From Vicinamibacterales bacterium (GTDB lineage: Bacteria > Acidobacteriota > Vicinamibacteria > Vicinamibacterales > JAMQPK01), in NCBI GenBank assembly GCA_963825295.1, contig CAWGSZ010000001.1:293298-357297 (forward strand): a stretch of DNA of 64,000 bases, given 5' to 3'. The position numbers were made by a program, and so were the translations under genes. The notes below the pieces were generated by a model, which saw nothing but the letters and a program-made list of their open reading frames with translations, was not told the origin of the DNA and ran no database searches. Shown in pieces: positions 2,722-63,751 of the stretch. How positions within the stretch are numbered: the stretch's first letter is position 1; each line of letters starts with the position of its first letter.

Positions 2722-2783
2722 CATGGCAGATGGCAAAGGGCCGATGGCAGAACATGCCATTTGCGATCTGCCACTTGCCATGA
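2722..2783. repeat. inverted heptamer array (GGCANNT x4 / GCCANNT x4) between convergent genes
   Basis: GGCAGAT GGCAAAG GGCCGAT GGCAGAA CAT GCCATTT GCGATCT GCCACTT GCCATGA. The arms are mutually complementary. It lies between the stop at 2704 (+) and the stop at 2794 (-). Confidence 0.85.
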
Positions 2784-2793
2784 CGGCGAACCC

Positions 2794-5700
2794 TCAGAAT
2801 CCAGGGGTCAGAGAGAAGCCCCAAATCCAACCCCTTCCAGGTCTGTCGAACGGCCGCGCGAAGTCGATCTGCGCGACCGCGAAGCCCAGCAGGTTCGTGC
2901 GCAGCGTGATGCCGCCGCTCGTGACCGGCTCGCGCGATCCGTTGAAGAACGACGGCTTCTGACCCTTGTTCCAGGTGACGCCGCCATCCAGGAAGAACGC
3001 CACTTCGACGGGCACTGGCCCGTAGACGTTGCTGTCGACACCGCGGAACGGACGGAGCAGCGGGAAACGGAACTCGACGTTGCCGACGAGCATCCGGCTG
3101 CCGACGAGACGATTGTAGGTGCTGCACACCGTGGCCGATTCGCATTCGCCCGCCTCAAACGTGTTGACGTTGTACCCGCGCACGAACTCCGGATACCCCA
3201 TATAGAGCGGGATGAGACGCGAGTCCTCTGCACCCGCGCCGTACCGGCCGTAGTGGAGGCCCCGGACGGCGATGGTGTAGAAGCGGGCCGGCATGAAGTA
3301 GCGACGGTAATCGACGAGCGCCGACGTCATGTTCAAGTCGCCGAATGTCGGCGAGACCTCCAGACGCGAGCGGGCGCCGGCCACAGGGCTCGTGGCGCCG
3401 AAAATCGAGCGGTCGGTGACCAGTGCCGTGCTCACCGACGGCATGTTCAACGGATCGATGAGATCCGTGGACACTTTGTCATCGGAAATCACGCTGCCGG
3501 TGCGGAGTGAATATGCCGTGGTCTGGACACTTTGTTCGTACGACGTCCGCATGTAGCTGCCACCCAGCTCGAGTCGCGTGTTCTGACTGAACGGATACGA
3601 CACGACCCCGGTGACACCCTGGTTGATCTGCCGCTGAATGATGGTCTGCTCGACGATCGCAGACTGGCCGTTCACCACGCCCTGCGCGGTTGAGTACCCC
3701 CCGGCGAGGTACGGCGACTGCTCGACGCCGACGCCCCAGTTCCAGCGCTTCGACGTGTTCGTGTAGAACAAGGCGGCGCCGGTGTTCTTGAGCAGTTCCG
3801 AGGCGCCGGCGCCGTAGGTGTCGGCGTTCACCTGCGCGTAGAGGTTGTGATTGCCGAGCATGTCGCTGAACTGGAACGCGATGCCCCCGCCGATCGAGCC
3901 GCCGAAGCGATCGATGCCGGCCGAGATGTAGGGCTGGCTGACGGTGTCGAGCTTCAGTGTCGACTTGTAAGGCTGGACTTCGGCCGGAGTGGTGGAGAGG
4001 CCGGTCGTGGCATCGCTCAACAGCGTCGCGACCATCGACTCGCGCGGCGTTGGCGGCAGCGTCGCCGCCTGCTCGCGCGCGACGGTCGAGCTCACCGGAG
4101 TGCCGGTAAGCCCGTCGGCCTCGATCAAGTAGATGTGGTGGCTGCCTTCCTCGTAGGCGCTCAACGCCAGCGTCTTCGCGTCCATCGCCGACGAAATCGC
4201 CGGGCTCAGCGCCGTGATGCCGCTGACGCCGCTGTCGAGATTGGTGATCTGCGCGATGGCACCCGAGGACGTGTTGACCGTATACACGTTGCTGATGCCG
4301 TTCCGATCGGACACGAAGAACACGCGCCGGGTGTCGGAGCTCCATTGCGGGTTGATGCTCTTGCCCTGCTCGAAGGTCGACAGCGCTGTGATGGCGCCGG
4401 TCGCCACGTCGTAGAGCGCGAGCCGGTAGTCGCCCGCCTTCAGCAGCTTTGCGTCCGTGGTGAACCGGTCCGTGACGAACACGATGCGATCGCCGTCGGG
4501 CGACCACGAGGGCTGCAGATCGGCATACAGATCGCTGGTGACGCGCGTGGTCGTTCCCGAAGCCAGGTCGAGGATGAAGAGATCCGAGTCGCCGCCGACG
4601 GTCGCCGAGAACGCAATCGACTTGTGGTCGGGCGACCAGGTCGGGTTGAGGATTTCACCGACCTGCGGGACTTCGATTTCACGCACGACGTCGCCGTCCG
4701 AGATGTCGAGGATGGCCAGCACGGCCTTACCGGCATGCACGCCGCCAGCCACGAATTGCTTGCCGTTGGGGCTCCACGAACCGGCGGAGCCGATGAACTG
4801 CAGGCTCGTGAAGTGGGAGTCGAGCGCAGTGTCGACGAGCTTCCGCACGATGCGCCCGGTCTCGACATCTCCGAGATACAGATCGATCGAAAACAGATCG
4901 CGGGACGAGAAGAACACGATATGGCGGCCATCGGGGCTGATCGACGGCGACACGTTCGTGGCCATGCGCGCCTTGTCGGTATTGGTGAGCCAGCGCCCGA
5001 ACGTATGCGCGCGCGCCGTCGCCTGCATCACCGGCGAGTACCTGCTCGCGAATTGCCGCCTGCCAGTCGGCCGACAGCACCTTTTCGTCGACGAGCGTCG
5101 AATCCTGGATCGCCAGAATGGCGTCGCCGCTCCGCACCGCTGCCCGGAAGATCTGGCCGATGAGGTCATCGCCGTACTTGCCCCCGATGTAGGCCCAGAC
5201 CGCCTGTCCCCACCGGTAGGGGAAAAATTCTCCATTGTCCAGGCTTCGTATCTGCGGCAGCGTCTCCTTGCGCGTCGCATCGCGCAGCCACATGGCCGTG
5301 TGCGGATCGACCGGGCCGATCGACAGATACTCGGCCAGCCCTTCGACAAACCACAGCGGGAGACGCTCGATGCCCGCGCCCATGCCGCCACCAGCGGGCC
5401 GCTGGGCCGAGATGTCGTACTGGAAGGCGTGGACAAGCTCGTGGCCGAGCACGTGGTCCGTTTCCGCGAGCGTGCCGCCGAGCGGCAGCACGACGCGCCG
5501 CTTGAGGCCTTCGGTGACACCTCCCGTACCTTCGCCGAGCATGCCGCCGATCGTGTTGGTCTGTTCGAAATCAGGATGTGACGCATACAGCACGAGCGGT
5601 TGACGCGACCGAATCTCGTGCTCGAAGACTCTGGACAGGCGCGCGTACCACCGCTCGGCCATCTGACCGACGCGAGCCGCGTTCTCGCGCTCCTGGTCGT

Positions 5701-5866
5701 AGAAGTACACGTCGAAGTGCTCGGTCTTGAGCACTTCAAACTTGAAGTCCTTGTCCTGCACTTTGTTGCGACCGAAATACTGCGCCTCGGCGGGCGCGGC
5801 CGCACACACGAGAAGCAGAAGCACTGACACGACACTGAGGGAGAGTCGGCGGGATATCTGCCGCAT
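2794..5866 (-). pseudogene. zinc-peptidase-like / TolB(PD40)-like / Omp85-barrel fusion outer-membrane protein, frame broken near 5041
   Basis: ORF pieces 4727..5977 and 2794..5940 join as ..ADWQAAIREQ|YSPVMQATAR.. if one base is removed at about 5041. Signal peptide MRQISRRLSLSVVSVLLLLVCAAAPAEAQ, HELVH motif, PD40-like repeats (SWSPNG, SWSPDG), and a C-terminal surface-antigen barrel ending GFSLTPGF. Confidence 0.75.
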
Positions 5867-6051
5867 GGCGAGCTCCTGAGAGAAGGTGGCTGGACACATC
5901 CGATCGGAGTTCTGCCAAAGTCGCGCCAACCGGGCTGCATGCAAATCTTCGAGGAAATACGGCAGATGGCCGTGCAAATTGTGGAGAAACTATGGCGGGC
6001 TGTCCTCTGGTCCGGTCAATACCTAAGGGAAAAACCGGAAGCCGTGACGCC

Positions 6052-6963
6052 TCAGAGGATCCTCATACCCAGCGCGGAGAGCGCGAGCTCGGTGCCGAGC
6101 TCGGCGGTTGTATTGCGGATGTCCAGTGTCGGATTCACCTCCACCAGATCGAGCGCGAGCAGCAGGCCGGACTCGGCGAACAGTTCCATCAGCAGGTGTG
6201 CCTCGCGGTAGTTCAACCCGCCTTTCACGGGCGTACCGACGCCGGGCGCGATCGACGGATCGCACACGTCCAGATCGAACGAGACGTGAATGCCGGCCAC
6301 GCCGTCGCTCACGGCCTTCAAGGCCTGCGAGGCGACCGTGGCGACGCCGAGCCGATCGATGTCTTTCATCGTGTAGACGTGCACGCCCGAGTTGCGGACG
6401 AGATCTTTTTCGCGATCGTCCAGGTTGCGCACGCCGATGAGCGCGGTGTGCTGCGGCAGGACGGTTGGCGAGAAGCCGCCGATGGAGGACAGCTCTGACG
6501 GCTCCGGACCGAGCAGCGCGGCGAGCGGCATGCCGTGTACGTTTCCGCTCGGTGTGCTCGCCGGCGTGTTCATGTCGCCGTGCGCATCAACCCACAGAAG
6601 CCCCAGCGGTTTCTCGGCGGCCCGGGCGTGCGCGGCCGATGCGGCGACGGAGCCAGCGCCAAGACTGTGATCGCCGCCGAGGACCAGCGGCAGCGCGCCT
6701 TCTTCGAGCGACGCGCGCGCGGTCTGATACACGCGATCACACACTTTTGCAATGTCCCTGATGTACTTCTTTCGCGGATCGCCGTGTTTCTTCGTCTCGG
6801 GAATGGGAGACAGCAGATCGCCGCGATCGGCGACCACGCGGCCAAGGGCCGCAATCTTCTCGCTGAGCCCGGCGATGCGAAACGCCGACGGTCCCATGTC
6901 GACGCCGCGGCGGCTGCCGCCCATGTCCAGAGGGACGCCGATGAGATGGACCGCCGAAGGCAC
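6052..6963 (-). CDS. rocF: arginase
   Basis: Arginase/ureohydrolase motifs GGDHS, DAHGDMNTP and SFDLDVCDP. GTG start at 6963. Confidence 0.85.
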   Translation of the reverse strand: MPSAVHLIGVPLDMGGSRRGVDMGPSAFRIAGLSEKIAALGRVVADRGDLLSPIPETKKHGDPRKKYIRDIAKVCDRVYQTARASLEEGALPLVLGGDHSLGAGSVAASAAHARAAEKPLGLLWVDAHGDMNTPASTPSGNVHGMPLAALLGPEPSELSSIGGFSPTVLPQHTALIGVRNLDDREKDLVRNSGVHVYTMKDIDRLGVATVASQALKAVSDGVAGIHVSFDLDVCDPSIAPGVGTPVKGGLNYREAHLLMELFAESGLLLALDLVEVNPTLDIRNTTAELGTELALSALGMRIL

Positions 6964-6983
6964 GGGCCTACAATAGCAGGAAG

Positions 6984-7055
6984 GAACAGAAGATCAGAAG
7001 ATCAGAAGGTCATTGGCCGAAAAGAGATCTGATCTCCTGAACTTCTGATCTTCTG
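6984..7055. repeat. inverted octamer-type array (GATCAGAA / TTCTGATC) in a divergent promoter region
   Basis: CAGAAGATCAGAAG (6987-7000) is the perfect reverse complement of CTTCTGATCTTCTG (7042-7055). The same 14-mer recurs at 51051-51064, with related copies at 60124-60160. Confidence 0.85.
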
Positions 7056-7066
7056 TGAGTGACTGA

Positions 7067-8404
7067 ATGACGATGCGCGTTCCCGACATCAAAGTGCCGC
7101 CACCCGGACCCCGCGCTAAAGCGCTGCTCGAGCGCGATCGCGCGGTGGTGTCGCCATCCTACCCCCGCAGCGCGCCGTTCGTGATGGCGCGAGGCGAGGG
7201 CTGCGTCGTCGAAGACGTGGATGGCAACGTCTATCTCGACTGCTGTGCGGGAATCGCTGTCGCGTCGACCGGCCATTCGCATCCCGACGTCGTGCGCGCC
7301 GTCACCGAGCAGGCCGCGCGGTTTCTTCACATCTCGACCGACTACTACCACGAGTCGCAGATCGTGCTGGGCGAGGAGCTCTCGCGGATCGCGCCCGTGA
7401 AGGGTCCTGCCAGGACATTTTTCTCGAATTCCGGAACCGAAGCGGTCGAGGCGGCCATCAAGCTCGCGCGGCATCACACGGGACGCTTCAACCTCATCGC
7501 GTTTCTCGGGTCGTTTCACGGCCGCACGCTCGGGTCGCTTTCGCTCACGTCGAGCCGCACCGTGCAGCGGCACGGGTTCGGTCCCATGTCGCCCGGTGTG
7601 TTTCACGCGCCGTACGCCAATCCGTATCGGCCCGTGATTGGAAGCGGGCGCGATCGGTCGAACGTGGCGTGCGACGCGCTCGCGTACATCGAGCACCAGA
7701 TCCTCGCGCATCTGGTGGCCCCCGACGAGGTCGCCGCCATCATCGTCGAGCCGATTCAGGGCGAAGGCGGATACGTCGTGCCGCCGGAGGAGTTCATCCA
7801 GGGGCTGGCGAAGATTGCGGCGAAACACGGCATGCTGCTCATTGCCGACGAAGTGCAGTCGGGCTTCGGGCGTACGGGAAAGATGTTCGGCATCGAGCAC
7901 TTCGGCGTACAGCCCGACATCATCGTTGCCGCGAAGGGCATCGCATCCGGCCTTCCGATGGGCGTCACCATTGCCGGGCAGGACGTGATGGACTGGCCGA
8001 CAGGCGCGCACTCGAACACGTTCGGCGGCAACCCCGTCGCCTCGGCGGCGGCGCTGGCGACGATCAAGCTCGTCGAAGGCGGGCTGATGCAGAACGCGGT
8101 CGAGATCGGCGGCTACCTGCAGGACCGGCTGCGGGAGCTGGCAAAGCGGCATTCCCTTATCGGAGATGTGCGCGGGCACGGCTTGATGATCGGTGTCGAG
8201 CTCGTCCGCAATCGCCAGACGAAAGAAAGGGCTACGACCGAGCGCGACGAGGTCGTGATGGCCGCCTTCCGCCGGGGGCTGCTGGTCCTCGCCGCCGGGG
8301 CGAACACCATTCGTTTCTCTCCGCCACTCGTGCTGACAAGGGATGAAGCCGACATCGCGGTTCGCATCCTGAGCGAGGCACTTTCCGAAGTCTCCAATTC
8401 TTAA
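7067..8404 (+). CDS. class-III PLP aminotransferase (4-aminobutyrate/ornithine aminotransferase-like)
   Basis: Motifs AGIAVASTGHSHP, SNSGTEAVEAAIKLAR, ADEVQSGFGRTGKMF and AKGIASGLP. Divergent from arginase. Confidence 0.85.
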   Translation: MTMRVPDIKVPPPGPRAKALLERDRAVVSPSYPRSAPFVMARGEGCVVEDVDGNVYLDCCAGIAVASTGHSHPDVVRAVTEQAARFLHISTDYYHESQIVLGEELSRIAPVKGPARTFFSNSGTEAVEAAIKLARHHTGRFNLIAFLGSFHGRTLGSLSLTSSRTVQRHGFGPMSPGVFHAPYANPYRPVIGSGRDRSNVACDALAYIEHQILAHLVAPDEVAAIIVEPIQGEGGYVVPPEEFIQGLAKIAAKHGMLLIADEVQSGFGRTGKMFGIEHFGVQPDIIVAAKGIASGLPMGVTIAGQDVMDWPTGAHSNTFGGNPVASAAALATIKLVEGGLMQNAVEIGGYLQDRLRELAKRHSLIGDVRGHGLMIGVELVRNRQTKERATTERDEVVMAAFRRGLLVLAAGANTIRFSPPLVLTRDEADIAVRILSEALSEVSNS

Positions 8405-8412
8405 TTTCATAG

Positions 8413-8442
8413 TTGACACAGGCCTCCACGGGAGCGTAGTGT
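8413..8442 (+). promoter_or_regulatory. possible sigma-70-type promoter of the blaI operon
   Basis: TTGACA (8413-8418), an 18-nt spacer, then TAGTGT (8437-8442), about 25 nt upstream of the blaI start. Confidence 0.3.
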
Positions 8443-8469
8443 GGGCAAGTCTTAATTTATTAGGTGAAC

Positions 8470-8847
8470 ATGCCTCGTCCTACGTCCCCAACGATGACCG
8501 ACGGCGAACTGCGTCTGATGCGCGTGCTTTGGGAAAGAGGTCAGGCGACGGTCGGGGAGGTGGTGGAGGCCCTCACCACAGGACCGAAGCCTGCCTACAA
8601 CACGGTGCTCACGCTGCTGCGCATCATGGAGAAGAAGGGGTATGTCTCGCACCGGAAGGACGGGCGCGCCTTCATTTTCCTGCCCGAAGTCGGCCGCGCC
8701 GCCGCGAGCCGCAGCGCGCTGCAGACGCTGGTCAATCGTTTCTTCGAAGGGTCGACGCGCCTGCTGATGCTGAATCTGCTCGAAGACGAGCAGCTCGCTC
8801 CCGATGTCGTGAAGCGGTTGAAGGAGCGGATCGAGGAGGCCTCATGA
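8470..8847 (+). CDS. blaI: BlaI/MecI/CopY family transcriptional repressor
   Basis: Winged-helix pattern LRLMRVLWERGQATVGEVVEAL..YNTVLTLLRIMEKKGYV. ATG at 8470 follows AGGTG (the ORF track opens at GTG 8464). The stop overlaps the next ATG (ATGA). Confidence 0.85.
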   Translation: MPRPTSPTMTDGELRLMRVLWERGQATVGEVVEALTTGPKPAYNTVLTLLRIMEKKGYVSHRKDGRAFIFLPEVGRAAASRSALQTLVNRFFEGSTRLLMLNLLEDEQLAPDVVKRLKERIEEAS

Positions 8848-10247
8848 CGGGGTGGCTGCTCACGTGGCTCTGGCAGGGGGTCGTCCTGACGCTGAGCGTC
8901 GCCATCCTCTTGAAGTCGAGGCGCTTCAATGCCGCGACGCGCCACCTGGTGTGGTGGGCGGCCCTCGTCGCCCTCGCCTGGCTGGGCTACCAATCATCCC
9001 CGTACGGGGGTCAGACCCCCGTACCTGTACGGGGGTCTGACCCCAATGGCATGAGTTTCGCGCCGGAGCCGCTGCTCCAGGTTCACCAAATCTCCCCGTT
9101 CGTTGTTTCGATCCTTCTTGGCGTCTGGGCCGCGGTTGCCCTCGTAAAACTGGTTCGTCTCGTGCCGAGCCTGCACGCGGTGTATGCGTTACGCGATCTG
9201 TGCCGGCCGTTTCCCGCTGCCATCGAATCGCGGCTTCCGCTCTGGCTCGACGCGAACGGGCGCGGGCGACGCCGGGCAGAGTTGATGCTCTGCGACGAGC
9301 TCGCGGGCGCGACGGTGCTCGGCTTCCAGCGTCCGTGCATCGCCCTTCCAACCTCCCTCGTCCAGGCGTTGAGAGTCGAGGACCTGGATCAGATCCTTCT
9401 GCACGAGCAGGCACACGTCGAGCGGCGTGACGATTGGGCGCGATTGGCGCAGGCGCTGTTGCAGGCGGTGCTGTGGATTCACCCGGTGGTCCCGTTCATC
9501 GGCCGCGCCTTGAACCGCGAAAGCGAGATGGCGTGCGACGAATCGGTCATCGCGCGAACCGGCCTTCCAAAGGCATACGCCCGGTGCCTCCTGATCGCCG
9601 CCGAAGTGCGCGGGCGCATCAGGCTCGCGCCGGCTGTCGTGCCGGCATTGTTCGGAAGCCAGCACGATCTCGTGCGCCGCGTCGATCGTTTGCTCCATAC
9701 GAAGGAGAGCACACGGCGCGGCGTCTCGTGGCTCGTGGTCGTTGGTGCCGCGTGCGCGATTAGCGCGATCTCGGTACGGCTGAACACCCTGCCGCTGGTT
9801 GGCGAGTACGTGGACATGGTCCTGCCGCTGGTCGCCTCGCCAGCCGCGCGCCTCGTTGCCGGATTGAAACCCGTCGCACCGGCATCATCAGTCGCGATTC
9901 GGTCCGTCGAATCAATTCACGCGAGCGCCGCGCCGCCGCGTCTCGCCTCGGTGAGCCCAAACGAACCTCACGAACTCCACGAACCTAACGAACCTAACGA
10001 ACCCAACAAACCTTACGAACCCAACGAACCCGGCGGACCTTCAGAACTTCGAGGGGTCATGTCCTCCCGCGCCTTCGAAGGTGCGTACCATCAGAATCCG
10101 ACAGCCGTCGAGTCCGATGGATCGAGCGGCTGGCGGGCGGCGGCCACTCCCGGCGTGGAGATCGCCAGCGCGGCGCGCAAGACCAGCGTGGGCATTGCCG
10201 GCGCGGTCACCCGCGCGAGTGTGTCGCTGGCGAAGAGCTTCAGATGA
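8844..10247 (+). CDS. blaR1: BlaR1-like M56 family membrane metalloprotease / signal transducer
   Basis: ATG 8844 overlaps the blaI stop. N-terminal TM helices and the M56 motif HEQAHVERRD are present. No penicillin-binding sensor domain is recognisable. The C-terminal half is low-complexity and carries repeat insertions. Confidence 0.75.
   Translation: MTGWLLTWLWQGVVLTLSVAILLKSRRFNAATRHLVWWAALVALAWLGYQSSPYGGQTPVPVRGSDPNGMSFAPEPLLQVHQISPFVVSILLGVWAAVALVKLVRLVPSLHAVYALRDLCRPFPAAIESRLPLWLDANGRGRRRAELMLCDELAGATVLGFQRPCIALPTSLVQALRVEDLDQILLHEQAHVERRDDWARLAQALLQAVLWIHPVVPFIGRALNRESEMACDESVIARTGLPKAYARCLLIAAEVRGRIRLAPAVVPALFGSQHDLVRRVDRLLHTKESTRRGVSWLVVVGAACAISAISVRLNTLPLVGEYVDMVLPLVASPAARLVAGLKPVAPASSVAIRSVESIHASAAPPRLASVSPNEPHELHEPNEPNEPNKPYEPNEPGGPSELRGVMSSRAFEGAYHQNPTAVESDGSSGWRAAATPGVEIASAARKTSVGIAGAVTRASVSLAKSFR
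8998..9044. repeat. double palindromic element inside the blaR1 coding sequence
   Basis: GGGGTCAGACCCCCGTAC (9007-9024) and GTACGGGGGTCTGACCCC (9027-9044) form a perfect 18-bp inverted repeat with a 2-nt spacer. It encodes ..PYGGQTPVPVRGSDP.. Confidence 0.8.
9961..10032. repeat. 8 x 9-nt tandem array (ACGAACCNN) in frame in the blaR1 3' region
   Basis: ACGAACCTC ACGAACTCC ACGAACCTA ACGAACCTA ACGAACCCA ACAAACCTT ACGAACCCA ACGAACCCG. It encodes NEPHELHEPNEPNEPNKPYEPNEP. Confidence 0.85.
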
Positions 10248-11191
10248 ACCGCACCCGGGCGTCCGCCGCTGGTTTCCTGATCCTTGCCGTTGTCGCGCTT
10301 GGCGCCCGGACGCCGGCTGCCGAAGGTGGGGCGCGCGGGGGCGCTCGACCCCCATTCGCGGCGTCGCCGGTTCCGCTCAACCTGCCAGGGCAGCAACTGC
10401 CTGTTTCGCGTGAATACACCTATCGGATGGCCGGCAAGATTCGCGCCCTTGTGCTCTGGGTCGGCCGCGACGACGTCGGATCGGCCGTCATCAAATGGCG
10501 CGGGGCTGGCGAGCGCAAGGCGTTCGAACTACTGATCGGGACCGATCCCCAGAAAGCGCCGAGCCAGATGAACAAGTGGGGATATCTGGTCGAGGAGATT
10601 CATCGCGGCGAGTCCGCGGTCGTCGGACTCATCTCACAGGAGAACGACGACAGGCTGAGCGACGTCAAAGCCGACCTGAAAAAGCGTAAAGATCTGCGCG
10701 CATTTGATACGATTCGCGGACACGTGACCGCGGACGAAGCGATGGCCCGCGTCGGAACCCTCCACGCGCCGAGCGAGCTGACCTACCGGTCCGCCGGCAC
10801 GGTGCTCGATCACGTGCTGGCCGATACGTCGCTGCCGGTGAAACAACTCCCGCGTGCCGGTGGCGTGCGAGCCGGGTTCCTGAGCGCGCTGTCCGAGCTG
10901 ATGGCGGCCAGCATTGAGAAAAAGCCGGCTCAGAAGGTTCCGTATATCCACGGCGATCGCCTCTACGAGCTTCGCCAGCTGGAAATTACCCCTCTTTCCC
11001 GATACGAGCGAGACGGACGTGCGTTCGATAAGGTCATTCGAGGGCGCTTCGAGACCGGCCAGGCCGGCGCGCGGTCGGGAACGCGCTTCGAGCTCGTATA
11101 TGGAGTGTCGGGTCCGCTTGCAGGCATACCCATCCTGATCTCCTATCAGCCGAAATGGTGGCTTCAAGTAGACTTGGTGCTCCAAACATGA
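10244..11191 (+). CDS. hypothetical secreted protein
   Basis: The ATG overlaps the blaR1 stop (ATGA) and its stop overlaps the next ATG. Signal-like N-terminus MNRTRASAAGFLILAVVALGA. No motif recognised. Confidence 0.6.
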   Translation: MNRTRASAAGFLILAVVALGARTPAAEGGARGGARPPFAASPVPLNLPGQQLPVSREYTYRMAGKIRALVLWVGRDDVGSAVIKWRGAGERKAFELLIGTDPQKAPSQMNKWGYLVEEIHRGESAVVGLISQENDDRLSDVKADLKKRKDLRAFDTIRGHVTADEAMARVGTLHAPSELTYRSAGTVLDHVLADTSLPVKQLPRAGGVRAGFLSALSELMAASIEKKPAQKVPYIHGDRLYELRQLEITPLSRYERDGRAFDKVIRGRFETGQAGARSGTRFELVYGVSGPLAGIPILISYQPKWWLQVDLVLQT

Positions 11192-12693: not shown

Positions 12694-12702
12694 ACCAGAA
12701 CT

Positions 12703-12807
12703 GGGGAGTAGGGACTAGGGATTGGGGATTAGGAATTGGGGATTGGATCAGGGTCGCAGGGACGCCTGATCCTAATCCCTAGTCCCCAATCCCTAATCCC
12801 TGATTCG
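12703..12807. repeat. inverted heptamer array, 7 units per arm (GGGATTN / NAATCCC)
   Basis: Left arm GGGGAGT AGGGACT AGGGATT GGGGATT AGGAATT GGGGATT GGATCAG. A 14-nt loop. Right arm CTGATCC TAATCCC TAGTCCC CAATCCC TAATCCC TGATTCG. It starts 10 nt after the stop at 12693. Confidence 0.9.
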
Positions 12808-12883
12808 GGTTCATTGTTAGGGTTGACACGTCCCGCGTAAATCGTAAGAGTACCCGCTTACCATCTCGCCATTCGGAGGAAAG

Positions 12884-22930: not shown

Positions 22931-25204
22931 ATGAAACGCTCGTTTTTATCTGCGTTGATGCTTGCGTTCGCCGCGTCTGCGTCGGCTCAGCCTGTTTCCG
23001 CGCTGGAGGGCCGGTTGCTGAACTCGCTGTCCGGCGATCCAATCGCGGGGGCAACGGTGGTGCTCGAGGAGCTCAAGACTGAAACGACGTCCGCCCCCGA
23101 TGGGTCGTTCCGGTTCGACCGGCTGGCGCCTGGCCGCTATCACGTATCGGTCCGCACGCAGGGATATTCGAACCGCCGGACCGAGGTCGTCGTATCGATC
23201 GAACGCGCCCAGGTCGACGTTCGCGTCGATCCCGATCTGCACTTCCAGGAGGTGACGTCGGTCAGCGCCGATACGCGCAGCCAGTTCGACGTCATGCAGC
23301 CGACCTCTGTGCTCGCCGGCCAGGAGCTGAGCAAGCAGCTCGAAAGCTCGCTCGGGGCGACGCTCGAGGCATTGCCCGGCGTTGCGGTCCGCAGCTTCGG
23401 ACCGGCGCCTTCACGGCCAGTCATCCGGGGTCTCGACGGCGACAGGGTGTTGATTCTGCAGGACGGCCAGCGCACCGGCGACCTGTCGAGCCAGTCGGGC
23501 GACCACGGCGTGAGCCTCAATCCGGCCGCCGCGGAGACCATCGAAGTGGTACGCGGCCCCGCGACGTTACTGTATGGCGCGAATGCGATCGGCGGCCTGG
23601 TGAACGTCATCACCAACGACATTCCGACGCGACCCGTTCAGCGCCCGTCGGGCCAGGTGACGTTCGACGCGGGAACCGCGGCCAACGAAGGCGGCGGCGC
23701 CGGACAGGTTCAGCTGGGCAACGGCAGGTTCGCCGTCAATGTGGGCGGCGGAGGCCGCCGGTCGGACGATTTCACGACGCCGGAAGGCGACGTGACGAAT
23801 TCGCAATCGCGAAACGGATTTGCCACGGTCGGCGCTGGATGGACCGGCGAGAAGGCGCAGGTTGGCGGCAGCTACGGATACGAGGACACCAAGTACGGGA
23901 TACCGGTCGTCGAGGGGGGCGTCATTCAACTCACGCCGCGACGGCACGCGCTGACCTTTCGCGCGGGCGCCGAGCGATTGACGGGCGCATTCGAGGCGTT
24001 TCGCGCCACGCTGGCCAATCGCCGCTACAAGCACGAAGAGCTCGAGGGCGAGAACGTCGGCACAGCATTCACGAACAACACGACCGAGTTCCAGACGATG
24101 GGCTCGCATCGCGCGGTCGGCCGCATGAAAGGGAGCATCGGTGCATGGGTGCTCGACCGCGCCTTCACGGCCACAGGCGCCGAGGCTTTGTCGCCGGCCG
24201 TCGATCAAGGCGGATTCGCCGCGTTCGCCTATGAAGAAGTCACCTGGCCGCACGTCACGCTTCAGTTCGCCGGCCGCGCCGATCACACGGGCTACACTCC
24301 TGCAGGAGAAACCAGGCGCGACTTCACCAACGGCTCGGTTTCCGGTGGCGTGGTGTTGCGGCCGGCGGCGGCCGACGATCGGCTGACGATTGCGGCCAGC
24401 TTCGCCTTTGCCGCACGCCCGCCCGCGCTCGAAGAGCTGTTCTTCTTCGGCCTGCATCCCGGCAACTTCGCCGTGGAAGTCGGCAATCCGAACCTGAAAT
24501 CCGAACGCGCATTGGGCGTCGATCTCTCGCTGCGCTGGCGCGCCGCGCGCGCGTCGGGCGAGGTGACCTACTTCCGGAATGACATCAACGACTACATTTT
24601 CCGGCGTCAGATGGACGCTGAGGAGTTCGAGGCGCGCCACGATGAGTTCGTCGAGCGTTTCGAGGGCCGCGAGCCTGCCGGACTGGACGAAGGCGCGGGT
24701 GAAGGTGAAGGCGCGGGTGAAGTTGAAGGCGGTGGAGGACCCGAACCTGAGATCGCTTACATCGAGTACATCGGCGCCGACTCGGTGCTGGACGGCATCG
24801 AGTCGCACGCGGACTTTCAGCTGACCTCCACGCTATCGGCCGAGCTCGGCCTCGATATCGTTCGCGGGTCGTTGAAAGCTGACGATTCGCCGCTGCCGCG
24901 CATCCCGCCGCTCAAGTTCCGAGGCGGACTGCGATATCAGCACAACGCGCTGCAGGTTGGCGGGCAAGTCATTGCCGCGGCCAGCCAGGATCGTCTGTCG
25001 GTGAACGAAACAGCGACCGACGGCTACACGCTGCTGAAGCTCTACGGTTCGTACTCATTCGGCGGCGCCGGCGCCGTGCAGACGATCACGGCCCGCCTGG
25101 ACAATGTCACGAACCAGCTGTATCGGAACCACCTATCCCTGATCAAGGACGTGGTGCCCGAGATGGGGCGCAATTTCAGAGTGGTCTACGCCGTCCGATT
25201 CTGA
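22931..25204 (+). CDS. TonB-dependent receptor with an N-terminal CarboxypepD_reg-like domain
   Basis: Signal peptide, GRLLNSLSGDPIAGATVV..APDGSFRFDRLAPGRYHV, plug region PVIRGLDGDRVLILQDG, and a C-terminus ..RVVYAVRF. Confidence 0.9.
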   Translation: MKRSFLSALMLAFAASASAQPVSALEGRLLNSLSGDPIAGATVVLEELKTETTSAPDGSFRFDRLAPGRYHVSVRTQGYSNRRTEVVVSIERAQVDVRVDPDLHFQEVTSVSADTRSQFDVMQPTSVLAGQELSKQLESSLGATLEALPGVAVRSFGPAPSRPVIRGLDGDRVLILQDGQRTGDLSSQSGDHGVSLNPAAAETIEVVRGPATLLYGANAIGGLVNVITNDIPTRPVQRPSGQVTFDAGTAANEGGGAGQVQLGNGRFAVNVGGGGRRSDDFTTPEGDVTNSQSRNGFATVGAGWTGEKAQVGGSYGYEDTKYGIPVVEGGVIQLTPRRHALTFRAGAERLTGAFEAFRATLANRRYKHEELEGENVGTAFTNNTTEFQTMGSHRAVGRMKGSIGAWVLDRAFTATGAEALSPAVDQGGFAAFAYEEVTWPHVTLQFAGRADHTGYTPAGETRRDFTNGSVSGGVVLRPAAADDRLTIAASFAFAARPPALEELFFFGLHPGNFAVEVGNPNLKSERALGVDLSLRWRAARASGEVTYFRNDINDYIFRRQMDAEEFEARHDEFVERFEGREPAGLDEGAGEGEGAGEVEGGGGPEPEIAYIEYIGADSVLDGIESHADFQLTSTLSAELGLDIVRGSLKADDSPLPRIPPLKFRGGLRYQHNALQVGGQVIAAASQDRLSVNETATDGYTLLKLYGSYSFGGAGAVQTITARLDNVTNQLYRNHLSLIKDVVPEMGRNFRVVYAVRF

Positions 25205-55064: not shown

Positions 55065-55148
55065 CTCAACGCAAAGACGCCAGGGCGCCAAGGACGTTTT
55101 TCGAAGATTGTCTTTGCGTCTTCGCGCCTTTGCGTTGAGACATGGAAG

Positions 55149-55532
55149 TCACAGCGCCGCCGCGAAGAACGCCAGGCAGGCCCAGCCGATGAGGAACCCC
55201 AGGCCGCCGATGGGCGTAATCGCCCCGAACATGCCGGTGCCCGTCAGCGCGAGCGCGTAGAGGCTTCCCGAGAAAATGAGCGTGCCGGCGATGAACGACC
55301 AGCCGGCGATCATGAGCAGCCGCAGCGGTCCGAAGTGCCCGATGGCCGCTGCGGTGATGAGCAGCGCGAAGACGTGATACATCTGGTACCGCACGCCGAT
55401 TTCGAAGACCGCCAGCATCTCTGGCGACAGCCGGTTACGCAATCCGTGCGCGCCGAACGCTCCGAACGCCACGCCGAGAAATCCAAGAATCGCCCCGATG
55501 AGTAGAAAACCCTTATGCATGTCTTTCGTCAT
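55149..55532 (-). CDS. DUF423 (YgdD/TMEM256-like) membrane protein
   Basis: GAFGAHGL.., VRYQMYHVFALL, SGSLYALALTG. Confidence 0.75.
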   Translation of the reverse strand: MTKDMHKGFLLIGAILGFLGVAFGAFGAHGLRNRLSPEMLAVFEIGVRYQMYHVFALLITAAAIGHFGPLRLLMIAGWSFIAGTLIFSGSLYALALTGTGMFGAITPIGGLGFLIGWACLAFFAAAL

Positions 55533-55620
55533 GGCAAATGGCACATGGCAAATAGCAAAAATTGGCATGGATGATGGCGTGTTCTGCCATGTGCCATTTG
55601 CCATCTGCCATCTGCCATGA
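55531..55620. repeat. inverted heptamer array (ATGGCAN x4 / GCCATNT x5)
   Basis: ATGGCAA ATGGCAC ATGGCAA ATAGCAA, a loop, then GCCATGT GCCATTT GCCATCT GCCATCT GCCATGA. It uses the same unit family as 2722-2783. Confidence 0.9.
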
Positions 55621-55637
55621 CACGTTACTTCAGCACG

Positions 55638-60110: not shown

Positions 60111-60178
60111 GAAAGATAAGAAACAGAAGATCACGAAGATCAGAAGCTTTTGATCTTCTGATCTCTCTGTTGTTTTTC
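60111..60178. terminator. hairpin-forming GATCAGAAG-type array followed by a T-run (possible bidirectional terminator)
   Basis: ..CAGAAGATCACGAAGATCAGAAG|CTTTTGATCTTCTGATCTCT.. then GTTGTTTTTCG. It lies between convergent stops at 60091 (+) and 60199 (-). Confidence 0.5.
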
Positions 60179-60198
60179 GTGGCTGTGTTGTTCGTTGG

Positions 60199-60916
60199 CT
60201 ATTTGTACGTCTGGAGATCTTTCCGATTGCAGCCAGGTGGCAACGCTACGGTGGGCGGCTTGTCGCCGGCGTAGCACTTCGGAATGACGTACATCGGTTT
60301 TGCGGTCGCTCCCAGGGCGGGCACGACGATGAACGCCGGTCTGGTGGAGACGAGCTGCATGTTGCCGCGATAGCGCAGAATTTCGCCCGGGTCGATCACC
60401 ACGCTGAACGTGGACGCTTCATAACCGGTTCCGCGCAGTTCGATGCGGTGCGCCCCTGTCGGGATGATCATGGGCCTGCCTCGCAGGCCGAAATCTTCCG
60501 CGAGGCCCTCGTAAAAGCCGTCGATGAAGACCTCGACGCCATCCGGAATCGTTTCCAGGACGAGACCACCGTGCTGGACGGGCAGCGGCGGGTTCGGGTA
60601 GTAGCTCACGTAGTCGCCCGGACGCCAGTAGGGATAGTACGAGTAGGTACGGCCCGTATGGTCCCGGAATGTAGATCGGCGGCCTGACGATGGGTGGAGA
60701 GGCCGGATACCGGCTGCCGGCCGCATATCGATCAGATCCATCCGGCGATTGATACAGGTCCGGGCCCGCCGGATGCATCCCCGCGAACGGGTCCGGCACG
60801 GTGAGCGATACCGGCGGTGCCGGCGGGGGTGGAACCGGAGGCTGCTGTGCCCGAAGCGGCGCCACGGTGGCGACGAGCAGAATGGGCGCCAGCAGCACGC
60901 GGAAACCAGCGGTCAT
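60199..60916 (-). pseudogene. PEGA-domain protein with a Pro-rich N-terminal region, frame broken near 60646
   Basis: Signal peptide MTAGFRVLLAPILLVATVAPLRAQ..PIYIPGPYGPY|YSYYPYWRPGDY..LVLETIPDGVEVFIDGFYEG. One extra base separates ORFs 60419..60916 and 60199..60741. Confidence 0.6.
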
Positions 60917-62276: not shown

Positions 62277-62834
62277 ATGAATCTCGTATTCTTCGGGCCC
62301 CCTGGCGCCGGCAAGGGCACGCAGGCCGACCGGTTTGCCGCCAACCATCGCATCCCGAAGATTTCCACCGGCGACATGCTTCGTCAGGCCGTGGCCGACG
62401 GCTCTCGCATCGGGACACTCGTGCGCGACACGCTGCAGTCCGGCGCGCTGGTGACCGACGAGCTCATCATTTCGCTGGTGGCCGAGCGGCTCGAACAGCC
62501 GGATACGGCCGGCGGGTTCGTGCTCGACGGGTTTCCGCGCACCATTCCCCAGGCGGCGGCGCTCGACGCGATGCTCGCCGAGCGGGGCGGCGTGAACGTC
62601 GTCGCGCTCGTGGTCCATGCCGACGAAGTCGTCCGGCGGCTCGCCGTGCGCGGGCGTGAGGACGACGGCGCGTGGGTGATCAAGGAAAGGCTCCGGGTGT
62701 ACTCCCGCGAAACCGAGCCCGTGCTCGAGTTCTATCGCCGGCGCGGCGCGGTAACGATCCTCGACGGCAACCGTCCGCTCGACGAAGTGACCGCTGCGAT
62801 TGAAGCAGCGGTTACGAGAGGGCTGAAGGCTTAG
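62277..62834 (+). CDS. adk: adenylate kinase (short-lid type)
   Basis: P-loop FFGPPGAGKGTQ, ISTGDMLR, GFVLDGFPRT. ATG at 62277. The stop codon lies inside the heptamer array. Confidence 0.85.
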   Translation: MNLVFFGPPGAGKGTQADRFAANHRIPKISTGDMLRQAVADGSRIGTLVRDTLQSGALVTDELIISLVAERLEQPDTAGGFVLDGFPRTIPQAAALDAMLAERGGVNVVALVVHADEVVRRLAVRGREDDGAWVIKERLRVYSRETEPVLEFYRRRGAVTILDGNRPLDEVTAAIEAAVTRGLKA

Positions 62835-63427
62835 GGCTCAGGGCTTAGGGCTCAGAGCTTAGGGTTTTGCACCTCGAGATGGCGACGCCTGCGCCGTCTT
62901 GATCGCCGCGACGATCATGGCCCGTAGCTCGCCGGCCTCCTTCAGTTCCCAATCGACTTCCTCTGCTTTGACCTTGCCGAGCTTTACCGCGACGCGCAGC
63001 CAGTAGCGGCTCTCGCGCGATTCCTTTCGAGAGATCGCCATCTTTGCGATGAAGTCGGGCTTGGTCTGACCATCCTGCGCTTCCTCTGCGTTGGCCCCGA
63101 CCGAAGCACCGCACCGCATCAACTCCGACGCGATATGACGCGCAGCAGGTCCGCGATCCCACAGTCTTTCTGATAGTTGCATCACTCGACAACCGAACTC
63201 GAACGCCCGCGTGCAGATAGTCGACTCGCTCATAGCGTTCGTGTGTCTTCAAATACGCCGCCATTTCTTGACTGCATAGATTCCGGAGGTTTTTCTTCCG
63301 GTTGGCAGTCTTTGCCACGTCAAGTCGACACCGACGTTGGAGAATGTTTGAAGCTGGATCACGATTAACCCTCAACCCTTAAGCCCTCAGCCCTCAGCCC
63401 TCAGCCCTTAGCCCTTAGCCCTTTCAG
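62821..63427. mobile_element. hypothesised IVS-like cassette: inverted GGCTNAG heptamer arms enclosing a four-helix-bundle gene
   Basis: Left arm 62821-62869 has 7 units of GGCTNAG. Right arm 63365-63427 has 9 units of CTNAGCC (the reverse complement). A single antisense ORF lies between them. The right arm abuts a truncated gene. Confidence 0.4.
62859..63233 (-). CDS. four-helix-bundle protein (23S rRNA intervening-sequence protein / Avd-like family)
   Basis: ..FEFGCRVMQLSERL..ELMRCGASVGANAEEAQDGQTKPDFIAKMAISRKESRESRYWLRV.. The TAA stop lies in the last units of the left array. Confidence 0.75.
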   Translation of the reverse strand: MSESTICTRAFEFGCRVMQLSERLWDRGPAARHIASELMRCGASVGANAEEAQDGQTKPDFIAKMAISRKESRESRYWLRVAVKLGKVKAEEVDWELKEAGELRAMIVAAIKTAQASPSRGAKP

Positions 63428-63428
63428 A

Positions 63429-63677
63429 GGAGAACCGCATACCGGCAGTCAGGTGTGCACGTATGCATCGGCGCAGTGGGCTGCATCGATTCGCGACTAC
63501 ATGGCGCTCGAGACCGTCACCGGTGAAGGCGGGTGGATGGATCAGGTGCTGACGCTCGATGGTCCCTACATCAAGGATGGCTTCATACAAGTGACGAGCA
63601 AGCCCGGACTGGGCATCGTTCTCAATCCGGACGTCGTCCGCGCCCATCTCGTGCAGGGGGAGAGTTGGTGGGGCTGA
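63429..63677 (+). pseudogene. 3' fragment of an enolase-superfamily (mandelate racemase/muconate lactonizing) gene
   Basis: The open frame starts right at the array edge: ..EPHTGSQVCTYASAQWAASIRDYMALETV..GPYIKDGFIQVTSKPGLGIVLNPDVV.. This matches only the C-terminal ~80 aa of such enzymes. No 5' part is present upstream. Confidence 0.55.
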
Positions 63678-63679
63678 AT

Positions 63680-63751
63680 CAATTGCGGATTGTTGATTGA
63701 CGATTGGCGATTGTATTGGCAATTGCCAATCGTCAATCGCCAATCGAAAAT
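63680..63751. repeat. inverted heptamer array (GATTGNC / GNCAATC) around an ATTGGCAATTGCCAAT palindrome
   Basis: CAATTGC GGATTGT TGATTGA CGATTGG CGATTGT, the centre, then TGCCAAT CGTCAAT CGCCAAT CGAAAAT. It lies between convergent stops at 63677 (+) and 63759 (-). Confidence 0.9.

Follow-up and report, generated by a model that had tools for sequence, protein, structure and literature searches.

Inverted Arrays of 7–9-nt Repeats Bracket PF05635 Genes and Recur as Gene-less Hairpins in an Acidobacterial Genome

Introduction

Intergenic regions in a soil acidobacterial genome (Acidobacteriota, Vicinamibacterales) carry short tandem arrays that share an organisation while the core of the repeated unit differs from locus to locus, which raises the question of what kind of element they represent. 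Here, we analyse a window of 64 kb (the whole stretch of DNA under study, 64,000 nucleotides), in which an initial annotation had listed about 18 such loci. We propose that these repeats are characteristic of IVP (S23p, PF05635) elements, i.e., IVS-like elements with gene-bearing and gene-less forms, a reading to which we assign a probability of roughly 0.5. New here is the observation that inverted arrays bracket PF05635 genes and that this layout is general across many bacteria; close relatives of the array phenomenon itself are already in the literature (PMC4692102, PMC4679880, PMC4990558).

Results

Repeat census. The arrays were detected with TRF, an inverted-repeat scan, and direct reading of the sequence, and 100 dinucleotide-preserving shuffles of the window served as the null for enrichment. 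The window contains 21 arrays with units of 7–9 nt in at least three copies, clearly more than the 1.0 ± 0.96 (maximum 4) of the shuffles, and 12 arrays of period 7 alone, compared to 0.58. The repeats described in the initial annotation are present at all of its loci (18/18); 51051–51064 is a mere trace of an octamer family with two CAGAAGAT units only (like the hairpins and IVP flanks below, it has no assigned strand). The arrays do not form a fixed-sequence REP/BIME or MITE family, and their organisation is indeed constant (tandem 7–9-nt wobble units, a G-rich run and then its complement) with a core that varies by locus. The cores are not unrelated, however; unrelated gaps reuse a limited set of unit families. 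The listed loci are a mixed set: some are gene-less hairpins, some flank one of two IVP genes, some are direct arrays without a partner, and three are coding arrays that keep the reading frame.

The two IVP elements. Four of the listed loci combine into two inverted pairs with arms about 500 nt apart (18501/19036 and 62821/63365), each around a gene, and both genes belong to PF05635, the family of the 23S rRNA intervening-sequence protein (IVP/S23p), an Avd-like four-helix bundle; PF05635 proteins are not known to have catalytic activity. In IVP element 1, the left G-rich flank (18501–18527) is a decayed, three-unit GGTGCGNNN array, orthologous elements having 6–16 units there, and the right C-rich flank (19036–19076, NNNCGCACC x4) runs up to the TauE gene's -10-like TAGAAT. 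IVP gene 1 (18620–18919, minus strand; Pfam 62.6 bits vs a cut-off of 33.8, E = 4.7e-17) encodes 99 aa, and is C-terminally truncated relative to homologues of ~140 aa; 7 relatives have an orthologue, the orientation of which can be either way. A 76%-identical IVP1-type homologue at an unrelated locus (L088) is again flanked by GGTGCGNNN / NNNCGCACC. In IVP element 2, the left G-rich flank (62819–62869, (AGGGCTN)x7) overlaps the last adenylate kinase codons and the stop codon of IVP gene 2, and the right C-rich flank (63365–63427) consists of (NAGCCCT)x8-9. IVP gene 2 (62859–63233, minus strand; Pfam 60.1 bits vs 33.8, E = 2.8e-16) is apparently intact with 124 aa, has 405 homologues, and matches PDB 2RLD (E = 6e-14). 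The AGGGCTN / NAGCCCT flanks are also found around 63–71%-identical IVPs in two other genomic contexts (L081–L087), and this unit family occurs gene-less in relatives. No Rfam match was found in the window, the elements sitting between protein-coding genes and not within rRNA. The association with PF05635 genes was absent from the initial annotation.

Gene-less hairpins. Eight loci of the window fold into hairpins of 25–60 bp, namely seven of those listed, with ΔG of -26 to -72 kcal/mol and z of -3.5 to -7.8 from RNA folding, and 55064–55140. The description of most loci as long imperfect stems holds for these seven but not for five partnerless direct arrays (14179, 47851, 50857, 9961, 40441), which are unstructured in folding with z about 0. 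The hairpin at 2720–2784 (unit ATGGCAN / NTGCCAT, from TRF and the inverted-repeat scan; ΔG -44.3 kcal/mol, z -6.9) occupies an 89-nt convergent gap with stops at 2704 (+) and 2794 (-); its unit is kept in L017, and GATTG-type arrays are found instead in L001 and L020. The same family reappears at 55528–55621 in a minus-strand co-directional gap (ΔG -51.9, z -6.8). The octamers CAGAAGAT / ATCTTCTG make up the hairpin at 6984–7056 (ΔG -35.1, z -5.2), located in the divergent gap between an arginase gene (-) and a class-III aminotransferase gene (+), and their family returns as AGATCAGA at 60111–60172 in a convergent gap (ΔG -26, z -3.5). The GGGATTN / NAATCCC hairpin at 12694–12810 (ΔG -72.2, z -7.8) sits between the stop codon at 12693 and the next gene's conserved promoter. 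L017, L020, and L006 lack an array at the orthologous position, which is occupied by other units in L001, L003, L004, and L008. Convergent gaps of 90 and 81 nt are filled by the imperfect hairpin at 25214–25296 (GTCGATGG / ATCGACC type; ΔG -50.3, z -5.4) and the GATTGNC / GNCAATC hairpin at 63688–63752 (ΔG -39.3, z -7.8), respectively. At 55064–55140, a locus absent from the initial list, three mirrored octamers of the GCGCCAAG type (ACGCAAAG, ACGCCAGG, GCGCCAAG, and their complements) form 29-nt arms that are 83% complementary in the inverted-repeat scan.

The arms are not mirrored position by position, since a slide by one unit pairs almost as well (0.845 vs 0.766 identity). The hairpins lie mainly 3' of gene ends, a tendency that is clearest in convergent gaps. 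With gene calls that are approximate, arrays are present in 6/7 convergent but only 5/28 co-directional gaps, so that the claim that they fill most intergenic gaps applies to the former type alone.

Direct and coding arrays. The solo direct arrays and the coding arrays are all on the plus strand. The GCGCAAG-type array at 14179–14224 (direct only, from TRF and sequence reading; z -0.4) lies in a short co-directional gap just 5' of the next gene's ribosome-binding site; L017 and L020 have a different number of copies, and L001 lacks the array. Nine copies of GGTGCGNNN, the unit of IVP element 1, fill the 83-nt gap to the next start codon at 47851–47931 and form no hairpin (z -1.1), and the degenerate CACGAAGNN-type array at 50857–50909, with unstructured RNA, is found in a convergent gap immediately 3' of a stop codon. 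Three nonamer arrays are in frame within genes. At 9961–10032, ACGAACCNN x8 encodes an NEP/HEP tripeptide linker in an M56/BlaR1-like protein (Pfam M56 match); the array RNA is unstructured, and in relatives the ORF remains open through differing arrays, with a conserved C-terminal tail. At 40441–40512, GGTGCGNNN x8 gives a (Gly-Ala-x)8 insertion in a NagA-like amidohydrolase, the Pfam Amidohydro_1 match spanning the array and the translation reading in one frame across the array, with the HxH motif before it and conserved sequence after it. At 46822–46857, GCACCNNNN x4 gives Ala-Pro-x repeats, (APx)4, within the called gene 46220–47851 of a PQQ-type beta-propeller protein, in a frame read from the sequence.

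Generality of the association. The architecture was examined at 65 diverse metagenomic IVP loci, compared with control windows. An array is found in at least one flank at 61/65 loci versus 9% of control windows, and the flank inverted-repeat score is at or above the 99th percentile of controls at 40/65. Flank units are reverse-complementary at 32/65 loci (28 with heptamers, 4 with octamers); all 32 have the G-rich arm first, and the median copy number is 4.35; typical arrays have 4–5 units. The unit corresponds to the protein, being shared by 73% of IVP pairs that are at least 70% identical and by none below 35% (permutation p = 4e-4), and of 14 gene-less heptamer arrays at other positions of IVP-bearing loci, 8 have a unit of the local IVP's family. 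The Xanthomonas protein XCC0516 (PDB 2GSC) matches the IVP family profile (E = 3e-11); its gene lies between accB and accC and is flanked by GGGAATC x4 and the complement x4 in X. campestris and X. citri, and the Dyella counterpart has the GGGAATA/GGGAATC variant, the four-unit flanks being conserved from Xanthomonas to Dyella. Across the Xcc genome, 186 GGGAATC arrays are known, 70 of these in inverted pairs (PMC4692102). No conserved partner gene adjoins the IVP genes at the loci examined, Xanthomonas-type loci included. The PDB entries of both solved IVP homologues contain five chains each, which is consistent with the published IVP pentamer (cited in PMC4990558).

Polarity, recurrence, and turnover. 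Gene-less inverted pairs in Vicinamibacterales are G-first in 38/41 cases with all inverted pairs counted (p = 1e-8), and together with the IVP-flanking pairs the polarity is 70/73, counts over orthologous loci not being independent. At non-orthologous gaps, 147 pairs match in unit family, versus 53 ± 7, and 26 are identical, versus 3. Turnover is seen among close relatives: in genomes ~97% identical, an orthologous site may have no array, an array, or an array of another unit, array copy numbers differ between genomes 96% identical, and a single orthologous gap shows very high unit diversity.

Discussion

In the proposed explanation, a full element consists of a small four-helix-bundle gene with a G-rich 7–9-nt array on one side and a complementary C-rich array on the other, so that a long stem can form with the gene in its loop, just as ORF-bearing 23S rRNA intervening sequences are laid out. 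Two full elements lie in the window, its other hairpins would be gene-less forms and its solo direct arrays single arms, and a unit proper to each IVP lineage would account for the differing cores. At the DNA level, units are gained and lost fast and whole arrays are replaced or lost, with expansion up to a stop codon, promoter, or ribosome-binding site; 9-nt units also persist in frame within disordered protein linkers. At the RNA level, a read-through transcript of either strand would fold into a 25–60-bp stem, which by analogy with the rRNA IVS is probably a substrate cut by RNase III, and the hairpins would then be transcript boundaries or processing sites, not U-tract terminators. The data directly show the architecture and its generality, the match of unit to protein, the polarity, and the turnover; we infer that the gene-less hairpins originate from IVP elements or depend on them, and the pentameric IVP protein may bind ~4–5 tandem units. 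The IVP association may explain the origin of bacterial heptamer repeats.

Some observations stand against this explanation. Within the 64-kb window, no IVP gene was found for most of the hairpin units (ATGGCAN, CAGAAGAT, GTCGATGG, GATTGNC). The very high unit diversity at a single orthologous gap, the lack of target-site duplications or defined ends on comparing filled with empty sites, and the lack of a known catalytic activity of PF05635 proteins and of a conserved neighbouring gene also count against it. The first units often overlap a neighbouring stop codon or -35 box, which fits seeding by local slippage at least as well as a ready-made element. As there is neither a sense-strand bias in stability nor register-specific pairing of the arms, a role at the RNA level is unproven.

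It is possible, although we consider it rather doubtful, that the arrays are a mutational by-product: replisome slippage of ~7 nt (the LSSR idea of Mrazek) would build them from any local sequence, template switching across nascent hairpins would copy an array to the other arm, and selection would only purge harmful sites, IVP genes carrying arrays through pre-existing inverted flanks and not as their cause. The differing copy numbers in genomes 96% identical, the absence of strand bias, the several registers of arm pairing, and the exact halt of arrays at stops, promoters, and ribosome-binding sites, with first units that resemble the stop-codon context, would all follow, as would the periods divisible by three (9 or 6 nt) of 26/39 arrays within called genes; many large GC-rich genomes are moreover reported to have an excess of heptamers (PMC4679880, PMC4692102). 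Slippage does not account, however, for unit families that recur at unrelated gaps far above chance, for a unit that travels with its IVP lineage between unrelated loci and phyla and is shared by 8/14 distal arrays, or for the flanks conserved from Xanthomonas to Dyella, and symmetric slippage does not predict the strict G-first polarity.

That the hairpins are host-selected RNA elements, i.e., bidirectional U-tract-independent terminators or 3'-end stabilisers that are REP/BIME-like in function and whose structure is maintained while the sequence drifts, appears unlikely. Near-identical genomes (L017, L020, L006) have an empty site with no replacement hairpin, arrays overwrite the promoter spacer in some relatives, and divergent promoter gaps also hold hairpins (6984–7056). 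U-tracts are absent at the hairpins, and the sense transcript is not favoured in summed stem stability (-748 vs -810 kcal/mol). Placement and stability speak for such selection: hairpin pairs are found in 41% of convergent vs 6% of co-directional and 9% of divergent gaps, in line with the occupied convergent gaps of the window; the distance between the upstream stop and the start of the stem is -3 to 30 nt, the stems are very stable, and short operon-like gaps hold direct arrays only.

Conventional non-autonomous transposons, either MITEs or RAYT-mobilised REPs, are highly improbable: orthologous sites are polymorphic for presence, and genuine MITE-like and REP-like elements occupy the same gaps in relatives, but the arrays have no fixed sequence and no terminal inverted repeats apart from themselves, their lengths vary by whole units, the filled-versus-empty comparison revealed no target-site duplication or defined ends, and the ~30 window ORFs scanned include no transposase or RAYT. 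A nature as regulatory repeats that form G-quadruplexes, which has been suggested for Xanthomonas GGGAATC and Nostoc GGGGAYT, can practically be dismissed, because, although GGGATTN (12694–12810) and some units of relatives (AGGGGTA) carry G3–4 tracts in at least four units and such oligonucleotides form G4 in vitro (PMC4692102), the unit sequence itself contradicts this reading at most loci, most units (ATGGCAN, CAGAAGAT, GATTGNC, GTCGATGG, GGTGCGNNN) having no G3 tract, and the G-rich hairpin arm is paired with its complement in the folding.

Comparison with Known Systems

Like REP/BIME and MITEs, the present elements are intergenic, hairpin-forming, located 3' of genes, and variably present; unlike them, with their fixed family sequence and dedicated RAYT or IS transposase, they share their organisation alone. 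Avd, of the same protein fold family as the IVPs, is the pentameric four-helix-bundle cofactor of the reverse transcriptase of diversity-generating retroelements (DGRs), whose homing needs a DNA hairpin adjoining the target. PF05635 is named in a DGR review (PMC10053308), but neither a reverse transcriptase nor a template/variable repeat pair lies beside any IVP gene examined.

Heptamers are the most abundant class also among LSSR (5–11-nt units in large GC-rich genomes; over-representation summarised in PMC4679880), cyanobacterial STRR, and the Beggiatoa TAACTGA repeats, and for LSSR multiples of three are tolerated in genes and slippage is the proposed source (PMC4679880, PMC4692102). These are described as direct repeats, in contrast to the mirrored G-first layout and gene-family association found here. 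The Xanthomonas GGGAATC and Nostoc GGGGAYT repeats resemble the present arrays as degenerate heptamers that are mostly intergenic, near the upstream ORF, and seldom found between divergent genes, with many convergent inverted pairs (70–75 inverted pairs for GGGAATC; Rehm 2015), four units as the commonest number, and length and sequence that vary between close species (PMC4692102). Each of those genomes is dominated by one unit, in contrast to the many unit families of the present arrays; the Xanthomonas and Nostoc repeats were read as G-quadruplex motifs with no function found, and the link to XCC0516 was not drawn (PMC4692102).

Compared to the ORF-bearing 23S rRNA IVS of Coxiella, Leptospira, and Brucella (S23p), the present elements differ in lying between protein-coding genes, in stems made of arrays of 4–16 units, and in many lineage-specific units with gene-less copies scattered through the genome. 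They resemble them in a PF05635 gene placed in what would be the loop of a long stem, in variable-copy tandem heptamers directly 5' of the ORF (GACAGAT x2-3 in Coxiella), in a sporadic distribution suggesting horizontal transfer, and in the occurrence of both ORF-bearing and ORF-less hairpins (PMC4990558). In the Coxiella IVS, the variable heptamers lie upstream of S23p and the stem is cut by RNase III (Warrier 2016, PMC4990558).

Tandem Arrays in the Window

The window has a G+C content of 62–68% and an ordinary housekeeping gene content, including genes for an arginase, an aminotransferase, an M56 peptidase, a Ser/Thr kinase, TauE, an adenylate kinase, and PQQ dehydrogenases. Over its entire length, searches returned no Rfam family at the gathering thresholds, no rRNA, and no tRNA; a plasmid megablast with one window gene gave no match, and neither did looking up the exact sequence of a window protein. 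All the array loci listed in the initial annotation are recovered by TRF and an inverted-repeat scan of the window, and short-period arrays exceed the number in shuffled sequence: 21 arrays with a period of 7–9 nt and at least three copies are present, vs 1.0 ± 0.96 (maximum 4) in 100 dinucleotide-preserving shuffles of the window. The excess is limited to periods 6–10. Seventeen of the 21 arrays lie outside called genes, the calls being those of a self-trained codon model that trimmed start sites and missed an amidohydrolase.

The arrays had also been described as hairpins. This holds for seven of the listed loci, for which single-strand folding gives ΔG values of −26 to −72 kcal/mol (z −3.5 to −7.8), but not for the direct arrays at 9961, 14179, 40441, 47851, and 50857, which are without structure. 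The inverted-repeat scan adds an eighth hairpin at 55064–55140 that was absent from the earlier list. Other repeats of the window are a 15-nt unit (2.6 copies, 60171–60210) directly after the hairpin at 60111–60172, an 18-nt unit (2.4 copies, 96% matches, 24689–24731) within the gene at 23015..25204, and a non-tandem inverted repeat at 16328–16418, directly 3′ of a stop codon, with 38-nt arms that are 97% complementary and a 15-nt loop. The last of these differs in kind from the array hairpins and is ~86% conserved in the related loci L001 and L017.

Turnover in Related Genomes

One window protein was searched against one genome per species. The search retrieved Vicinamibacterales (Acidobacteriota) MAGs, with a top amino-acid identity of 97%, and yielded 80 orthologous loci of ~21 kb each. 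The array density is 0.05–0.65 per kb in the Vicinamibacterales loci and almost nil where the same gene lies in a Bryobacteraceae or Terriglobia locus. The comparison of orthologous gaps that the initial annotation suggested does reveal unit variation, the same site being found empty, filled, or holding other units. The gap from the stop codon of the query gene to a conserved promoter is 8–13 nt long and empty in L017, L020, and L006, contains a GGGATTN hairpin in the window and a GTAGCTN hairpin in L001, where the flanking gene is ~97% identical, and holds other units in further relatives. At other gaps, L017 shares the units of the window apart from small copy-number differences, but in L001 and L020 they are replaced.

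The neighboring stop codon is often overlapped by the first unit. In some relatives, the C-rich arm in the query-gene gap stands in for the promoter spacer and overlaps the −35 box; arrays can thus overwrite promoters. In L007, L008, and L035 (~11540–11600), the C-rich arm (CCCCTTG, CCCCTCA, and CCCCTCG) includes a TTGAC −35-like box and stands in place of the spacer of the promoter conserved elsewhere, so that arrays can also rebuild a promoter. At the same site in three other relatives (L002, L005, and L012, ~11510–11620, orthologous to 12694–12883), a fixed-sequence REP-like double hairpin, GTAGGGCGGGTC..GACCCGCC..GCCGGGTCT..AGACCCGGCCTAC, takes the place of the tandem-array hairpin. In 20 sequences, the window plus 19 related loci, 41% of the convergent, 6% of the co-directional, and 9% of the divergent gaps hold a hairpin pair; the counts, with orthologous sites among them, are not independent.

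Arrays are also found inside coding sequences, where they create disordered linkers within enzymes. Three nonamer arrays of the window are of this type. The M56 reading frame stays open across the array at 9961–10032, and in its relatives the arrays differ, while the C-terminal tail behind them is conserved; the array at 40441–40512 encodes a (Gly-Ala-x)8 insertion with conserved NagA-like amidohydrolase sequence on both sides; and that at 46822–46857 encodes Ala-Pro-x repeats within a propeller protein. A period of 9 or 6 is seen in two thirds of the within-gene arrays (26/39 in the window and the 19 related loci, orthologous sites included and thus not independent). The M56 orthologue of L008 (8676–8900) carries within its frame an inverted nonamer pair, GGTGCAACG in 9.7 copies and CGCACCTAT in 5, translated into VQR/VQG repeats and then His/Pro-rich and API/APT-type repeats. 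In the window, the M56/BlaR1-like ORF has a perfect palindrome with 18-nt arms in its N-terminal portion, at 9007–9044 (GGGGTCAGACCCCCGTAC / GTACGGGGGTCTGACCCC).

IVP Genes between Inverted Arrays

Both inverted pairs of the window with arms ~500 nt apart surround a PF05635 gene, encoding a 23S rRNA intervening-sequence protein (IVP), a relative of Avd that also goes by the names S23p and four-helix-bundle protein. IVP gene 1 (18620–18919, minus strand) lies between GGTGCGNNN and NNNCGCACC arrays at 18501–18527 and 19036–19076, and IVP gene 2 (62859–63233, minus strand) between (AGGGCTN)n and (NAGCCCT)n arrays at 62819–62869 and 63365–63427. The two products belong to PF05635/TIGR02436 with 62.6 and 60.1 bits, respectively, the gathering cut-off being 33.8, and have homologues of solved structure in PDB entries 2RLD and 2GSC.

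Orthologues of IVP gene 1 occupy the same gap in seven relatives, in either orientation and with flanks of 6–16 units; the gene is missing from the orthologous gap in L017. A 76% identical homologue adjoins an OEP gene, again with GGTGCG and CGCACC nonamer flanks. Homologues of IVP gene 2 (63–71% identical) have the same AGGGCTN and NAGCCCT flanks in two unrelated contexts, namely after MaoC and between MFS and LptF/G. In L004 (17240–17720), the IVP gene appears degraded (46% identity over 59 residues) and is surrounded by long nonamer arrays of ~14 and ~13 units, which means that arrays can outlast an intact gene in cis. In L001 (17180–17440) and L020 (17140–17400), at the site orthologous to 18503–19087, a MITE-like element of ~260 bp with terminal inverted repeats (CTTGGGTTGGCGTTGCTGC...) stands where the IVP gene would be, in opposite orientations in the two.

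The association extends well beyond the Vicinamibacterales. A profile of these IVPs matches PDB 2GSC, which is XCC0516 of Xanthomonas campestris, with an E value of 3e-11, and in the supplement of Rehm et al. (PMC4692102) the start of XCC0516 is listed as overlapped by a GGGAATC repeat. In X. campestris, X. citri, and Dyella, the IVP gene sits between accB and accC; the Xanthomonas gene is flanked upstream by GGGAATC-GGGAGTG-GAGAATC-GGGAATC and downstream by CATTCCC-CATTCTC-GACTCCC-TATTCCC. The GGGAATC unit is found in 186 arrays of the Xcc genome, 70 of them in inverted pairs (PMC4692102).

A family motif from a Xanthomonadales-type alignment, run against metagenome contigs, found 80 diverse IVP loci, 65 of which have sufficient flanks. 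In 40 of these 65, the inverted-repeat score of the flanks reaches at least the 99th percentile for random placements. At least one flank contains a tandem array in 61 (control windows, 9%), both flanks do in 37, and the units are reverse-complementary in 32, with period 7 in 28 cases and period 8 in 4. The upstream arm is the G-rich one in all 32 loci with reverse-complementary units, where the median copy number is 4.35. Unit similarity tracks protein similarity (Spearman −0.29, permutation p 4e-4), a unit being shared by 73% of the IVP pairs that are at least 70% identical and by none of those below 35%. Of 14 other heptamer arrays near metagenomic IVP genes, eight share the unit family of the IVP at that locus.

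Relation of Gene-less Hairpins to the IVP Elements

No gene lies between the arms in 32 of the 41 inverted array pairs found in the window and the Vicinamibacterales loci. The G-rich arm comes first in 38 of the 41 (p 1e-8), and because this polarity reads identically on both strands, it belongs to the pair as such; the IVP flanks share it. At gaps that are not orthologous, unit families recur in 147 pairs, as compared to 53 ± 7 under a composition-preserving null, and identical units in 26 vs 3. The unit family of IVP gene 2 has gene-less occurrences in relatives as well. The shared polarity, the recurring unit families, and these gene-less occurrences argue against every locus having arisen locally and on its own. 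They support a process shared by gene-less hairpins and IVP elements and, on the 64 kb of this genome covered, each gene-less hairpin may derive from an IVP element.

Behavior of the Hairpins in RNA

The stems show no transcribed-strand bias in stability, with −748 kcal/mol for the sense and −810 kcal/mol for the antisense strand and similar G–U counts, and an array hairpin is also present in a divergent gap. Nor are the wobble positions mirrored in register: the best register is barely above the unit-shifted ones. The arms thus lose little pairing on a shift of one unit and are not simple palindromic duplicates. With no sense-strand advantage and slidable arms, there is no evidence of selection for a strand-specific RNA structure. 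Intrinsic (Rho-independent) terminators are rejected, since no T runs follow the stems, and the lack of U-tracts excludes canonical termination; a terminator scan of 1–20000 gave 14 sites vs 12.5 expected, none at arrays.

RNase III cuts the terminal stem of the Coxiella intervening sequence, which has variable tandem heptamers ahead of its S23p gene (PMC4990558). By analogy with such ORF-bearing rRNA intervening sequences, cleavage by RNase III would be the likeliest fate of a transcribed hairpin, and the hairpins would then act as transcript boundaries. Both PDB entries of the solved homologues (2RLD and 2GSC) contain five chains, and PMC4990558 cites a paper that describes the pentamer. The five subunits and the usual array length of 4–5 units point to a putative binding model, and a simple candidate would be one unit bound per IVP subunit.

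A Possible Retroelement-like Mechanism

It is conceivable, although improbable (we put the chance at about one in ten), that the IVP elements are retroelement-like, the arrays arising by telomerase-like or target-primed reverse transcription templated by the IVP transcript. The template would be the 3′-terminal C-rich array of this transcript, a reverse transcriptase would act in trans, and the Avd-like IVP pentamer would serve as its cofactor. At nicks or breaks, DNA 3′ ends would be extended with G-rich unit repeats. Abortive priming at both ends of a break would leave a gene-less [G-array][C-array] hairpin, and a new IVP element would arise from a full-length copy.

If true, such a mechanism would explain the near-universal G-first polarity (70/73), the correspondence between unit and protein lineages, the scatter of gene-less arrays with cognate units in the same genome, the microhomology of the first unit with the flanking stop-codon sequence, and the homology of IVP to the cofactor of the reverse transcriptase of diversity-generating retroelements (DGR). 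It would also explain an old puzzle, the dominance of heptamers among the long SSRs of bacteria. No reverse transcriptase was seen, however.

Comparison with Known Systems

The arrays agree with the heptamer class of long SSRs as defined by Mrazek and Rehm, i.e., head-to-tail units of 5–11 nt in at least 2–3 copies, over-represented and mostly intergenic. The excess of heptamer SSRs (PMC4692102; PMC4679880), the inverted GGGAATC pairs (PMC4692102), and heptamers in one IVS (PMC4990558) have already been described. Our literature searches on Vicinamibacter tandem repeats and on IVP or four-helix-bundle proteins with heptamer repeats found no paper linking PF05635 genes to flanking inverted heptamer arrays or to genome-wide arrays of the same unit. 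The IVP gene nearly always has inverted arrays of a lineage-specific 7–8-nt unit on either side, and the same genome holds gene-less arrays of this unit. The present results suggest that the heptamer excess (Xanthomonas, cyanobacteria, and others), the sporadic 23S rRNA IVS, and the orphan four-helix-bundle/S23p family are facets of one system. The heptamer excess in large genomes, the IVS, and the S23p proteins, a very large orphan family related to the DGR cofactor Avd, have hitherto been separate and unexplained. The solved structure of Xcc0516 and its genetically tractable Xanthomonas host open the system to direct experiment.

CRISPR arrays, with 23–50-nt repeats and unique spacers, are dismissed, the units here being 7–9 nt long and contiguous. 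A legend to a figure on CRISPR-associated proteins in a terascale CRISPR survey includes "23S rRNA IVP" (PMC10910872), and this listing might, as far as the legend goes, be caused by arrays miscalled as CRISPRs. The contigs with IVP homologues in the metagenome match table are mostly ~1 kb long, which suggests short-read assemblies broken by the arrays.

G-quadruplex repeats (Rehm 2015), with at least four tandem G3 tracts, would account for GGGATTN alone, as the other units are without G3 tracts, and this reading is rejected. A MITE is rejected as well, given the absence of a target-site duplication between filled and empty sites and ends that are unit arrays of variable length. REP/BIME elements have a fixed 20–40-nt imperfect palindrome in all copies. 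Here the cores differ by locus with no single consensus, so that the arrays, in line with the initial annotation, are not one fixed-sequence REP family, and no RAYT (Y1 transposase) was detected among the ~30 window ORFs scanned. For a diversity-generating retroelement, no reverse transcriptase or template/variable repeat pair adjoins the IVP genes examined, whose neighbors are kinase, TauE, adenylate kinase, MaoC, MFS, LptF/G, accB/accC, and OEP genes.

The 23S rRNA IVS come closest. By location the window elements differ from them, since an IVS is defined by its site in helix 9, 25, or 45 of the 23S rRNA gene, whereas the elements lie between protein-coding genes. In architecture, however, they are alike: the termini of an IVS are complementary and pair into a long stem enclosing the insert, with the S23p ORF optional, and the inverted arrays flanking both IVP genes have just this arrangement.
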